32,000 nt of DNA from an uncultured archaeon (GTDB lineage Archaea > Nanobdellota > Nanobdellia > Woesearchaeales > ARS49). Below, piece by piece: positions 13,374 through 30,240 of the stretch; position 1 is the first letter of the stretch; each line of letters opens with the position of its first letter. Below the pieces are notes generated by a model. The model had not been told where the DNA came from. It did not search any database and saw only the letters and a list, made by a program, of their open reading frames with translations. Position numbers and translations under genes: made by a program. The DNA lies in NCBI GenBank assembly GCA_902385765.1, contig CABMGU010000077.1:24921-56920 (forward strand), written 5' to 3'.

Positions 13374-13628
13374 GTGCCAAAAGTTTTATTAAAAAGAGAA
13401 GAATTCAGCAATTTGATGGAGATTATTTTTACAAGCCACGCAGAATTTCGGATTAAAAAGAGGAAACTTCTTGAGCAGGAGGTTGTCGACACCATAAGGT
13501 ATCCTGATATAACTATCAAGAAATACGACAAGTATTATTTCCAGAAGAAGCTCGAGAGAGGCACTATTGAAGTTTCCTGTGAAAAAACGGAAAGATATAT
13601 AAAAGTAATAACGGTATATTGGATTTAA
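13374..13628 (+). CDS. DUF4258-like toxin-type small protein
   Basis: MEIIFTSHAEFRIKKRKLLEQEVVDTIRYPD matches the DUF4258 pattern (i.fs.HA..Rm..R.I....v..vi..P). The true start may be the internal ATG at 13416. Confidence 0.65.
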   Translation: MPKVLLKREEFSNLMEIIFTSHAEFRIKKRKLLEQEVVDTIRYPDITIKKYDKYYFQKKLERGTIEVSCEKTERYIKVITVYWI

Positions 13629-19439: not shown

Positions 19440-20579
19440 ATGCGTTTATTAAAAGAGGCGAATGTTGCTGGAAAAACTGTTCTGATGCGTGTTGATTTTA
19501 ATGTGCCTTTGAAAGACGGTAAAATAAGTGATGACAAGCGCATTCGCGCAGTCCTTCCAACGATTGATTATTTGAGGAAAAAGAAAGCCAGAATTATTCT
19601 TATCTCTCATTTGGGCAGGCCTGACGGTAAGGTTGTTGATGAACTGCGTCTTGCGCCTGTTGCTGACCGTTTATCAAAACTTTTGAAGTATCCTGTTCAT
19701 TATGAGCCTGACTGCATTGGTTCTGATGTTGAGATCTCTGCTCGTGGTCTGCACGAGGGTGATGTTTTATTGTTGGAAAACCTGCGTTTTTATCCTGAAG
19801 AAGAGCAGGATGATGTGGGTTTTGCTCAAAAGCTTGCCGCGCCTGCCGATATCTACGTTAACGACGCTTTTGCTGTCAGTCATCGAGCTCACGCGAGTGT
19901 TCACGCGATTACTAAATTCCTTCCGTCTTATGCCGGTTTCCTGTTGGAAAAGGAAGTCAGGATGTTGTCCAGCCTGTTGAAGTCTCCAAAGCATCCTTTT
20001 CTTGCCATTATGGGTGGTGCAAAGGTAAGCGACAAGATTGGCGTTATCGAGAATTTGCTGAAAAAGGTTGATGCCGTTCTGATTGGCGGTGCTATGATGT
20101 TCACTTTCTATAAGGCGCTGAACTGCGAGGTTGGCAGGTCAAAGTTTGAAGCTGATAAGGTGGACCTTGCCAAATCATTGCTTAAAAAAGGCAAAAAAAG
20201 AATAATCTTGCCGACAGATGTCGTCCTGTCCAACAGGCGTGTTGTTCCTGCTAATAAGATGCCTAAAGCATTTGCTGGTTTTGATATTGGTCCTGAGACT
20301 CAGGCGATTTATTCTGAGATGATTAAGAGTGCCAAGACTGTGTTCTGGAATGGTCCGATGGGTTTGTTTGAGCAGAAGCCGTTTGATAAGGGCACGATTG
20401 CAGTTGCAAAAGCGATGTCCGGGTGCAAAGGTGTTACTGTTGTCGGCGGTGGCGACAGTGTTTCTGCTGTTGAAAAAGCAAAGCTGGAGAAGAAGTTCAG
20501 CCACGTCAGCACTGGTGGCGGTGCCGGTTTGGAATTTCTGGAAGGAAAGGAACTGCCTGGAATTAAAGTGTTAGAATAA
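19440..20579 (+). CDS. pgk: Phosphoglycerate kinase
   Basis: The sequence shows [40 protein letters not shown] and [13 protein letters not shown]. The start is at MRLLKEA; the upstream part of the track ORF is a duplication artefact. Confidence 0.95.
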
Positions 20580-21741
20580 TTTTGAACTTTTGCAGTTCCT
20601 GTTTAAGCTCTTCTTTTATTTCTATGTCGCTCGGTATTGTCAGTTTTGCTATCGTTTTTTCCAGCTGTTCTATGTCAGTATTTGCTCTCTTTATGTCTTC
20701 TGCATACTGCGTATATTCTTTCATTATTGGTCTTTCTGCTACATCTCCTTGTATGTCTGCCTCTCTTTTCTTGGCTTTCGCGTATCTGTGTATCATTGTG
20801 CTGAGTCTTTCTTTTGTGAGTTGTTTTATTGCGTCAAGTGCTTTTTGCGTTTTTTCTGGCTTAAGCTCCAGTTCTCCGCCTGTTATTGCTTTTGCAAGGT
20901 CGTCTTTGTGTTTGAGTATTGCCAATGAGTAGTCTTTTATCAGTGTTTGAAGCGGGTTTTCGGCGTATTTTGCTATTTTCTCGTTTTTTATCTTGTGGGC
21001 GTATTTTTTTATCGCGTCTGATAGTGCCAGGAATAGTCCTGTTATGTCTTGTTCTGCTTCCTGTCTTTCTTTTGCTGAGGTTATTATGTCCTCTTTTACC
21101 TGCACATACTCCGGTCTCTTGTTGAATTCCTCTTTTTCTTTTTTTAGTGTGTCTCTTTTGTTTATCAGCTGTTGCAGTTGTGTCTGGAATTCTGCCTGCT
21201 GTTTTTCTATTGTTTCTTTTTCGTTTTTGGTGTCGTCTATCTTTTGTATGAGGTTTGTTATTTTCTGCATTTCCTCTTTTTGTGCCTGTATTTTCTTGAT
21301 ATTGACTATTTTTTCCTCAATCGAAGCCATCGCTCCTCTCAGTTCTTTTACTTCATCTCCTATGAATTCTGTGAGGATTGCGGCCGGTCTTGCCACGTTT
21401 TGCGCGTATTGATGGAATAACAAGTCGATTTGGCTGATGTCAGTGCTGTCTTTTGGTATGAAGATGTTTTCAACGAATTTGCTTGTCAGCCTGATGAACT
21501 GTTCCCTGTTGCCCTGCATGAAGTGTTTTGCTCTTTCAGGTATGTTTGGGTTTCTTAGTTCTGCTTTTTCCAGTTTGAAAACTGCTTGTTTTACTCCGAT
21601 TAGAAGTTCTGGCAGTGCTTGTTGTCCTGCTTTTATGGCTTCTTGTTGTTCTTTTTCCAGTTTTTCCTGTTCTTCATTCAGCCAGCCGCGTACTTCTTCC
21701 AGGCTTTTCTTTTTAAAGAACAGTTTTCTGAACCACTCCAT
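20563..21741 (-). CDS. Coiled-coil protein of unknown function, 392 aa
   Basis: Starts at MEWFRKLFFKKK, behind a GAGGA SD. It has long K/E/Q-rich heptad-like stretches. It is convergent with pgk and overlaps it by 17 nt. Confidence 0.65.
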   Translation of the reverse strand: MEWFRKLFFKKKSLEEVRGWLNEEQEKLEKEQQEAIKAGQQALPELLIGVKQAVFKLEKAELRNPNIPERAKHFMQGNREQFIRLTSKFVENIFIPKDSTDISQIDLLFHQYAQNVARPAAILTEFIGDEVKELRGAMASIEEKIVNIKKIQAQKEEMQKITNLIQKIDDTKNEKETIEKQQAEFQTQLQQLINKRDTLKKEKEEFNKRPEYVQVKEDIITSAKERQEAEQDITGLFLALSDAIKKYAHKIKNEKIAKYAENPLQTLIKDYSLAILKHKDDLAKAITGGELELKPEKTQKALDAIKQLTKERLSTMIHRYAKAKKREADIQGDVAERPIMKEYTQYAEDIKRANTDIEQLEKTIAKLTIPSDIEIKEELKQELQKFKIILTL

Positions 21742-21759
21742 TTGATTATTTCCTCGTTT

Positions 21760-21842
21760 CGCCGCGGTCAAAGACTGACTTTCTTTCTCCCCTTGCAAAG
21801 CGCGGGGAGAAGAAAGTCACTTGGGCAAGCCCAAGCGCGGCG
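21760..21842 (+). repeat. Four-way-junction (cloverleaf-like) structured element, copy A
   Basis: Outer stem cgccgcg/cgcggcg. Hairpin 1 is gtc-aaa-gac. The long hairpin is (t)gactttctttctcccc / ggggagaagaaagtc(a), with one bulged T and loop ttgcaaagcgc. Hairpin 3 is cttggg-caag-cccaag. An oligo-T run (21852-21857) follows. Confidence 0.6.
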
Positions 21843-21868
21843 TGATATTTGCTTTTTTCGACCAAATG

Positions 21869-21876
21869 TTTATATA
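21869..21876. promoter_or_regulatory. Candidate palindromic TATA box between the coiled-coil gene and rnp4
   Basis: TTTATATA lies about 45 nt upstream of the rnp4 ATG (21918). In the opposite sense it could start a transcript that includes element A as the 5' leader of the minus-strand gene. Confidence 0.3.
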
Positions 21877-21917: not shown

Positions 21918-22160
21918 ATGGTTGCTGAATTGTTTGAGCAGGCTGCAATGCATCCTGACCAGGCGAGGAAGCTTATAACCGCTGCAAGGAAGCTTGCTGC
22001 CAAGTCAAGGATGAAAATTCCTTTGGAATGGCGCAGGCGTTTTTGCAAAAAATGTAATTCGATGCTGGTGCCAGGGAAAAACTGCCGTGTTCGCACGAGA
22101 AAAGGCTTGGTCGTTGCGACCTGCCTTGATTGTATGAATATCCGGCGTGTAAAGAGGTGA
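21918..22160 (+). CDS. rnp4: RNase P protein component 4 (Rpp21/Rpr2 family)
   Basis: Zinc-ribbon pattern RRRFCKKCNSMLVPGKNCRVRTRKGLVVATCLDCMNIRR, preceded by a helical N-terminus. An in-frame GTG at 21900 is an alternative start. Confidence 0.85.
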   Translation: MVAELFEQAAMHPDQARKLITAARKLAAKSRMKIPLEWRRRFCKKCNSMLVPGKNCRVRTRKGLVVATCLDCMNIRRVKR

Positions 22161-27274: not shown

Positions 27275-27282
27275 TTTTGAAG

Positions 27283-27355
27283 CGCCCCCGGTGAGACTCG
27301 AACTCACGACCCACTGATTAACAGTCAGTTACTCTACCGGCTGAGCTACGGGGGC
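27283..27355 (-). tRNA. tRNA-Asn (anticodon GTT)
   Basis: The minus-strand sequence is GCCCCCG TA GCTC AGCCGGTA GAGT A ACTGA CTGTTAA TCAGT GGGTC GTGAG TTCGAGT CTCAC CGGGGGC G. This is a 73-nt canonical cloverleaf with a TTCGAGT T-loop. CCA is not encoded. Confidence 0.95.
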
Positions 27356-30072: not shown

Positions 30073-30080
30073 ATTTAAGT
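30073..30080. promoter_or_regulatory. Candidate TATA-like box ATTTAAGT (left copy)
   Basis: It lies about 32-39 nt upstream of the minus-strand ATG at 30041. Read on the plus strand, it lies about 28 nt upstream of the outer stem of element B. The identical 8-mer recurs at 30241-30248. Confidence 0.3.
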
Positions 30081-30083
30081 GTT

Positions 30084-30207
30084 TTGGCGTAGTGAGCTCT
30101 ATGCCAAATTTCGCTGCTCTGGTCCTACGGACTGAATTATCTCTCCCCTTAGCTATGCGTGGGGAGAGATAATTCACCTCGCTTAAGCCGAGGCAGAGCG
30201 GTGAAAT
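30084..30207 (+). ncRNA. Structured element copy B: a 9-bp hairpin followed by a four-way-junction (cloverleaf-like) fold; candidate novel ncRNA or DNA structural repeat
   Basis: The leading hairpin is ttggcgtag-tgagct-ctatgccaa (30084-30107). The 14-bp outer stem pairs 30108-30121 with 30194-30207. Inner hairpins are gtcc-tac-ggac, (t)gaattatctctcccc-ttagctatgcgt-ggggagagataattc(a), and cctcg-cttaagc-cgagg. The three non-Watson-Crick pairs are all G-T as read on the plus strand. Confidence 0.6.
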
Positions 30208-30240
30208 GTGTGTCTTGGGATTGTATTGGCAGAGCAAAGC

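Follow-up and report, generated by a model that had tools for sequence, protein, structure and literature searches.

The Correia/NEMIS, ERIC, BOX and RUP elements of bacteria are dispersed repeats of 80-150 bp with inverted-repeat ends and target duplications, and their stable structures, when co-transcribed, can alter expression. The GC clusters and double-hairpin elements of fungal and algal mitochondria are mobile, intergenic, GC-rich mini-palindromes in which structure is kept over sequence. In the flip/flop hairpin termini of parvoviruses and in chloroplast hairpin loops, a segment enclosed by inverted repeats occurs in both orientations; as reported for the chloroplast loops, template switching between short inverted repeats can invert segments without an enzyme. 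Among REPINs (doublets of repetitive extragenic palindromes, REPs) compensatory changes are common, and hairpin or 'clover' forms of single-stranded DNA have been proposed (PMC3116915). A census of MITEs (miniature transposable elements with inverted repeats) includes one Woesearchaeal genome with about 105 MITEs per Mb (PMC11602168). Here we analyzed a stretch of 32,000 nucleotides from an uncultured archaeon of the Woesearchaeales (contig CABMGU010000077.1; the whole stretch is called the window), in which two copies, A and B, of a branched palindrome fold into a four-way junction. A preliminary description of this DNA had regarded them as two independent loci that preserve a structure rather than a sequence, the mark of a selected fold. 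Our analysis indicates that the element probably represents a new family of small, non-coding, non-autonomous mobile DNA repeats, similar to MITEs and REPINs, in which the fold is kept at the level of the DNA or the element. To date, all its members come from a single narrow clade of Woesearchaeota-like (DPANN) archaea.

The fold of copy A was examined on both strands. In the mini-hairpin-first orientation, the sequence reads CGCCGCG, GTC-AAA-GAC, TGACTTTCTTTCTCCCC TTGCAAAGCGC GGGGAGAAGAAAGTCA, CTTGGG-CAAG-CCCAAG and CGCGGCG, and all the helices, loops and coordinates that the preliminary description gave for this copy are present (Table 1). The 11-nt loop of the long arm contains a further mini-stem of U·G, G-C and C-G pairs with a triloop, and the junction is fully paired, with zero unpaired bases where the four helices meet. 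Folded as RNA, copy A reaches a minimum free energy of -51.4 kcal/mol (z = -6.2), a value equaled by 0 of 200 shuffled sequences. The complementary strand is nearly as stable as RNA (-48.6 kcal/mol), and the plus strand folded as DNA gives z = -5.5.

Further copies were sought by scanning one genome per species with the apical motif CTCCCC-TT(N)GC-NNN-GCG-N-GGGGAG; compared loci are labeled L001-L097, and copy A of the window is winA. The archaeal matches comprised many copies in the metagenome-assembled genome (MAG) CAYUHB, together with matches in two Woesearchaeota MAGs (JAHWHB and JAPLZR), and all archaeal copies found with the motif share the same four-way-junction fold. A metagenome scan for the element added L081-L084, and the apical motif had 0 matches in the viral contigs scanned. 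A covariance model, R1, was then built from 13 copies. Such a search had been put forward in the preliminary description, and it recovered copy A (89 bits), copy B (82.7 bits) and 18 further matches on the archaeal loci, two of which the motif pattern had missed; no third copy was found by R1 in the 32-kb window. The fetched parts of MAG CAYUHB hold at least 12 copies, and three degenerate copies (L015, L055 and L053) score 47-58 bits. In the DNA of relatives, ~66 kb scanned with filters off and a further 20 kb, R1 found no copy, and the family looks lineage-restricted and expanded. MAG CAYUHB is labeled 'uncultured Methanosarcinales archaeon', yet it is syntenic with Woesearchaeota-like sequences, including the window, at 82-93% nucleotide identity; judged by this synteny, the taxonomic label is probably wrong.

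Across copies, the conserved core is a non-coding branched palindrome of 81-93 nt. The outer stem spans 7-14 bp (often 10-14 bp), the long arm is a pyrimidine/purine helix of ~16 bp capped by CTCCCC-(TTGC-NNN-GCGY)-GGGGAG, and the third hairpin has 5-8 bp. Between-copy similarity stops at the outer stem, save for a weak GCG-N-AAA extension. In some copies the third hairpin is expanded into two further hairpins, a state seen in three copies (L068a, L077a and L053). These long variants lie at L068:2922-3056, at L077:763-903 and from L053:1753 to the contig end; the extra hairpins, GTCAAGACAAAAC..GTTTTGTCTGGAC and CTCCAGCCGAAC..GTTCGGCTTGAG, are present in both orientations, and the expansion may be a nested palindromic insertion.

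Covariation was quantified on a model-based alignment of 16 copies with 35 pairs. Standard pairs fill 96.9% of the pair cells, compared to 83.4% in column shuffles and ~45% when partners are slid. Changes on both sides of a pair affect 23 of the 35 pairs (85 cells), a level reached by 0 of 500 shuffles; the alignment was fitted to a model that favors pairing, and we judge the effect to be far too large for that cause. Both-side changes were found in six of the seven outer-stem pairs and in all seven pairs of the third hairpin. Little or no variation was seen in the four junction-flanking pairs (G-C, G-C, U-A and C-G), in the mini-stem GTC/GAC, in the greater part of CTCCCC/GGGGAG and in the loop's GC/GC mini-stem. 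The compensatory change reported for A and B is thereby extended to at least 16 copies, whose stems co-vary far beyond chance. The junction-proximal bases described as conserved are so for the four flanking pairs and GTC/GAC, and not for the 'TGA' that opens the long arm, which varies.

Comparison with orthologous sites revealed that the element is present or absent at three loci. The coiled-coil protein at locus A belongs to a conserved Woesearchaeota family with the synteny Rpr2, coiled-coil protein, PGK. The site is filled in the window and in L041 (MAG CAYUHB; coiled-coil protein 84% identical), and these two copies have identical outer stems and differ by three both-side changes, one G·U to A-U change and two mismatches, pairing being kept at ~20% divergence. 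The same site is empty in L086, L088, L089, L090 and L091 (60-71% identity), where the ATG is 13 nt from the promoter block AAAACTATATAAACATTTGGT. It is also empty in L094, which has a 15-nt spacer and a gene 93% identical in nucleotides to that of L041. With the tree ((L041, L094), window), this filled/empty pattern implies either a gain plus a loss or two insertions at locus A. L094, which reads GGT AATGAAATAATTGTT ATG, served as the empty-site reference for the possible target-site duplication listed in Table 1. At locus B, the orthologous spacer is ~100 nt and empty in L092 (also MAG CAYUHB), L093, L087 and L090; L092 and L093 read ...GCTTTGCTCTGCCAAAACACTTAAATA... there, and alignment of the filled with the empty sites delimits a 137-nt insert between direct repeats.

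The third locus lies between dnaK and a small open reading frame (ORF). These are 0-2 nt apart in L095, L096 and L097, which lack the element, and 106-109 nt apart in L014 and L072, a spacer that equals the element plus ~20 nt. In this orthologous pair the element is ~64% identical (hand count) compared to 89% for the flanks, a gap that suggests replacement, conversion or re-insertion of the element. The operon concerned is grpE-dnaK-(52-aa ORF)-dnaJ, in which the element parts dnaK from the small ORF by ~107 nt (L014:2428-2444 and L072:361-371). In L072, TGAGGAAAATA-ATG is placed before the small ORF and resembles the tail at window copy A (GAGGAAATAAT). Among other copies, target repeats were assessed at the insert edges: L058 has an exact 9-bp repeat (p about 0.02), and the remainder are not significant. 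A and B are not two independent loci that preserve a structure but copies of a dispersed repeat whose sites are empty in close relatives.

The settings of the copies were surveyed next to ordinary genes. The element inserts into short AT-rich spacers beside promoters or beside the start or stop codons of genes, at a distance of 7-22 nt from these codons, and is found in 5' leaders, operon spacers and convergent gene ends or between promoters. The neighbors are housekeeping genes, including those for DnaK, DNA ligase, a helicase, an ABC1 kinase and MoxR, as well as the spacer between 2-oxoacid dehydrogenase E1β and E2. The question whether copies always sit in divergent promoter regions, raised in the preliminary description, is answered in the negative by those in tandem operon spacers and at convergent gene ends. 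Relative to inferred transcription, about five copies have one orientation and six the other. Copy B is placed between two divergent TATA boxes and is therefore upstream of both transcription units. When copies were aligned with their flanks, no conserved promoter or terminator accompanied them.

Parts of the element are also inverted relative to one another. Viewed with the mini-hairpin first, the apical loop reads TTGC-NNN-GCGY in 11 copies and RCGC-NNN-GCAA in nine. The two forms are one asymmetric motif in opposite orientations, and the orthologous L014 and L072 copies have one each; the middle triplet varies independently. The inner module of the expanded third arm is likewise inverted between L068a and L077a, with 52 of 61 positions identical as the reverse complement compared to 41 of 61 in the same orientation. 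Beside copy B (GCTCTATGCCAAA) and in L072 (TAATCCA), the flank repeats in inverted form the target sequence across the insert, and it looks as if the outer palindrome was extended by copying. Non-Watson-Crick cells are G·T in 10 cases and A·C in six on the mini-hairpin-first strand, and about five and four, respectively, on the transcribed strand (hand tally, inferred transcription directions). An attempt to assign an RNA strand by G·U asymmetry was given up, as there was no signal. Because orientations are mixed, loops and the arm module are inverted and G·T shows no preference for the transcribed strand, the covariation is no proof of function at the RNA level. Neither the flips, nor the flank copying, nor the strand neutrality would be expected of an RNA that depends on its loop sequence and orientation. 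Of the selected-fold interpretation, which is only partly borne out, the real fold with strong covariation stands, and a dedicated RNA gene is not supported.

The effect of copy A on its neighbor was deduced from promoter geometry. The palindromic TATA box shared by the coiled-coil and rnp4 genes has the same sequence in the window, L041, L094, L088 and L090, and L086 differs from it at one position. Where relatives lack the element, the box lies only 22-24 nt upstream of the coiled-coil ATG, so the mRNA is leaderless there. In the window, 18 nt separate the element from the ATG at 21741; they hold nothing TATA-like and are too short for an archaeal promoter; the box at 21869-21876 must therefore drive the minus-strand transcript. 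This geometry supports the minus-strand alternative of the preliminary description, in which the element forms part of the 5' leader of the coiled-coil gene. By its spacing from the box, transcription should start at about 21844-21847, 2-5 nt before the element, and the coiled-coil mRNA would carry the whole junction as a highly stable ~105-nt 5' leader. A Shine-Dalgarno (SD)-like GAGG lies 10 nt before the ATG at copy A, and the corresponding motif in L041 is GGTGA; the leaders acquired in the window and L041 measure about 105-115 nt. The T6 run beyond copy A, previously likened to an archaeal terminator, is outside the conserved core in a promoter-proximal spacer. Filled L041 has T5, empty L088 has GAAACAAAAAGG on the gene strand (T5 on the plus strand) and L086 and L090 have none, and it is improbable that the run serves the element as its terminator. 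Of all the loci, locus A alone has rnp4 as a neighbor.

Known families and architectures were searched for the element. Rfam 15, at gathering thresholds and at E up to 10, gave only chance sub-threshold miRNA-like hairpins with A, B, the long variant and bacterial look-alikes. The element was not called by ARAGORN in the window or in eight loci, copy A had no BLAST match in phage and plasmid collections, and a literature search retrieved no description of the element or its architecture. Hairpin and twister-sister ribozymes and the archaeal bulge-helix-bulge motif were rejected, since the internal loops or bulges that these need are missing from the arms and Rfam was negative, and integron attC was rejected for want of cassette arrays.

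Against the described mobile repeats, the element shows a mixture of shared and divergent features. As in MITEs, it is small, non-coding, dispersed in multiple copies and polymorphic for presence at orthologous sites. The boundaries of the inserts have no terminal inverted repeats, so one defining feature of classical MITEs fails. With Correia/NEMIS, ERIC, BOX and RUP it has in common its size, its non-coding and dispersed nature and its insertion beside promoters and genes, and it differs from these bacterial elements in the perfect four-way junction, the invariant junction pairs, the stems that differ yet remain complementary, the flipping segments and, again, the lack of inverted repeats at its boundaries. 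REPs and REPINs are likewise short, GC-rich extragenic palindromes with many copies, a conserved fold, frequent compensatory changes, placement in transcribed spacers and both orientations. However, the element has no conserved GTAG or CGTC end tag in the aligned copies and flanks (GTAG stands beside copy B only) and is not a doublet of inverted REPs with a spacer, as its mini-hairpin and third hairpin are unrelated in sequence. Its host is archaeal, no gene for RAYT (TnpA-REP, the Y1 HUH transposase that mobilizes bacterial REPs and REPINs) was seen in the fetched loci, and copy B has a direct target repeat, which HUH transposition does not leave. The GC clusters and double-hairpin elements of mitochondria resemble the element as GC-rich mini-palindromes in an AT-rich compact genome, but they are organellar, form two hairpins instead of a four-way junction and show no apparent homology. 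Parvovirus and chloroplast hairpins resemble it in behavior only, being replication termini or neutral hairpins rather than dispersed chromosomal repeats. With tRNA the element shares four helices round a junction and a 7-bp closing stem, but not the conserved tRNA loops, its hairpin loops all being 3-4 nt.

Taken together, the fold shared by dispersed copies, the filled and empty sites and the inverted segments point to a mobile repeat in which base pairing would be maintained at the element or DNA level. Folding might be needed for propagation, or hairpin-templated (template-switch) correction might restore pairing and also invert the segments that stems enclose. Locus A would then record an insertion that separated TATA box and start codon in a gene whose counterparts in relatives have no leader, and any effect of the new leader on mRNA stability or translation would be a by-product or exaptation and not the cause of fold conservation. 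Several observations weigh against this reading. Only at B was a clear target duplication found with an empty-site control; it is an exact 5 bp, or 9 bp if one mismatch is allowed. The inserted DNA is longer than the core, measuring 104-113 nt at A, 106-109 nt at the dnaK locus and 133-137 nt at B and at L058. The additional flanks inside the inserts are neither conserved nor complementary (complementarity no better than in shuffles), and in place of terminal inverted repeats at the boundaries there is an outer stem that sits 0-26 nt inside them. No transposase or partner gene was seen in the fetched loci, which are genome fragments; a gene between two inverted copies in L077 was considered as a transposase and rejected, as its product looks by eye like a MoxR-type AAA ATPase and has no transposase features. 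All five independent copies whose mini-hairpin side faces a gene sit within ~20 nt of the gene start, which hints at some orientation constraint. The asymmetric TT/GY loop flanks have never been 'corrected' to a perfect palindrome; together with the invariant junction pairs, this implies recognition by some factor. Finally, the three both-side changes between winA and L041 could reflect in-place selection on a resident copy.

These changes, through which pairing was kept, also fit an unlikely alternative, in which the host selects a cis-acting RNA module that stabilizes mRNA, punctuates operons or tunes translation, and mobility only spreads the copies. Most copies do occupy spacers that transcription has to cross, at 7-22 nt from a stop or start codon; the RNA fold combines high stability (-51 kcal/mol, z = -6.2) with strong covariation, and an SD-like GAGG or GGTGA follows the element at locus A. 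A cis-regulatory 5' untranslated region would have a fixed orientation and position, whereas the element occurs in both orientations at 5', 3', intra-operon and inter-promoter sites, with copy B upstream of both promoters. The loop and the arm module are inverted between copies, the loop even between L014 and L072; there is no sense-strand excess of G·U, and decayed copies exist. Moreover, very close relatives have the same genes with nothing inserted at these sites, so the element is dispensable. Farther still from the data is a stand-alone tRNA-like small RNA gene on the plus strand, starting from a TATA-like sequence inside the coiled-coil gene, ending at T6 and perhaps processed by RNase P. 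The cloverleaf-like shape with its 7-bp 'acceptor' stem, the T6 10 nt downstream, the TTTTTAAAG sequence ~45 nt upstream and the slight bias of G·T to the mini-hairpin-first strand (10 to 6) speak for such a gene. It is nonetheless largely refuted and highly improbable: ARAGORN and the Rfam tRNA model were negative, D-, T- and anticodon loops are absent, the outer stem frequently measures 10-14 bp, the copies share no conserved promoter and the T-run is outside the conserved core. The copies are insertions in arbitrary contexts, and the proximity to rnp4 is unique to locus A.

The recognition by a factor that the invariant pairs imply could also mean that the element is a DNA site, cruciform or Holliday-junction-like, that a protein specific for both structure and sequence (a recombinase, a junction-binding protein or a nucleoid factor, for example) binds, recombines or inverts. 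We regard this as decidedly improbable. It would account for the constancy of the junction pairs and the GTC/GAC stem, for the asymmetric CCCC-TTGC..GCGY-GGGG conserved in either orientation, for the stem-enclosed segments inverted between copies and for a fold equally possible on both strands. Yet no associated protein gene was seen in the fetched loci, the positions look opportunistic, and template switching between short inverted repeats could produce inversions with no enzyme involved. A bolder variant, quite unlikely in our estimate, is that the folded junction mimics a Holliday junction and is the substrate of an archaeal mobility or recombination system. Its invariant junction pairs and asymmetric apical motif would serve for recognition, and an enzyme specific for structure (for instance, a junction resolvase, tyrosine recombinase or HUH enzyme) would carry out insertion, excision and flipping. 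If true, this would represent a new mode of DNA transposition in DPANN archaea.

Table 1. Features of the window related to copies A and B of the four-way-junction element
Feature	Position	Strand	Remarks
Coiled-coil gene	20563..21741	-	mRNA predicted to carry copy A as 5' leader
Possible target-site duplication at A, gene side, TGATTATTT	21743..21751	.	candidate; AT-rich, ambiguous
Copy A, core four-way junction	21760..21842	+ (mini-hairpin-first orientation)	transcribed strand presumably -; sequence, fold, covariance model
Copy A, outer stem 5' half, CGCCGCG	21760..21766	+	pairs with 21836-21842
Copy A, mini-hairpin, GTC-AAA-GAC	21767..21775	+	stem invariant in 16/16 copies
Copy A, long arm	21776..21819	+	16 bp plus one bulged T; apical CTCCCC/GGGGAG; loop TTGC-AAA-GCGC
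Copy A, third hairpin, CTTGGG-CAAG-CCCAAG	21820..21835	+	
Copy A, outer stem 3' half, CGCGGCG	21836..21842	+	
Possible target-site duplication at A, promoter side, TGATATTT	21843..21850	.	candidate
T6 run	21853..21858	+	10 nt past copy A; promoter-proximal spacer, outside conserved core
Conserved palindromic TATA box, AAAACTATATAAACATTTGGT	21869..21876	.	common to coiled-coil and rnp4, a divergent gene pair
RNase P protein Rpp21/Rpr2 (rnp4)	21918..22160	+	Pfam PF04032, E = 4.6e-16; neighbor only
Direct repeat TTGGC, left	30084..30088	.	9-bp form TGTTTTGGC, 30080-30088, one mismatch to right
137-nt insert holding copy B	30089..30225	.	filled-vs-empty alignment
Copy B, core four-way junction	30115..30200	+	same helix order as copy A; 82.7 bits
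Direct repeat TTGGC, right	30226..30230	.	9-bp form TGTATTGGC, 30222-30230

Other repeats were noted in the course of the analysis. Multi-copy GC-rich repeats of Anaerolineae, Aggregatilineales, many Proteobacteria and Armatimonadetes (for example, L005:1950-2040, L028 and L065) carry the same apical hairpin, CTCCCC-TTGC-NNN-GCG(G/A)-GGGGAG, inside three-way structures of C-runs and G-runs. These bacterial look-alikes match no Rfam family, and the flipped loop was never seen among them. Their likeness to the archaeal family reflects either homology or convergence, and the apical hairpin is possibly related to these multi-branched repeats of Chloroflexi and Proteobacteria. In L068 (3730-4040, minus strand), three direct copies of a tRNA 3' portion (T-arm and acceptor) look like scars of integration into a tRNA gene, and the last appears to belong to an intron-containing tRNA missed by ARAGORN. 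The window itself holds tRNA-Asn (GTT) at 27282-27355 (minus strand), its sole Rfam or ARAGORN match, and a 25-nt inverted repeat at 13446-13593 with 72% complementarity and a 98-nt spacer (TTTCGGATTAAAAAGAGGAAACTTC / GAAGTTTCCTGTGAAAAAACGGAAA).

The family carries a warning for the use of covariation, which is widely taken as proof of a functional RNA: a textbook case, with 23 of 35 pairs changed on both sides, can arise in a selfish, insertion-polymorphic DNA element. The DPANN archaea gain a structurally well-defined family of mobile repeats, and its insertions offer natural experiments: one made a leaderless archaeal gene leadered, with an SD-like motif, and another increased the distance between two divergent core promoters by about 137 bp. 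With its invariant junction, flipping arms and missing terminal inverted repeats, the family raises the question of what moves and maintains such elements in very small genomes.

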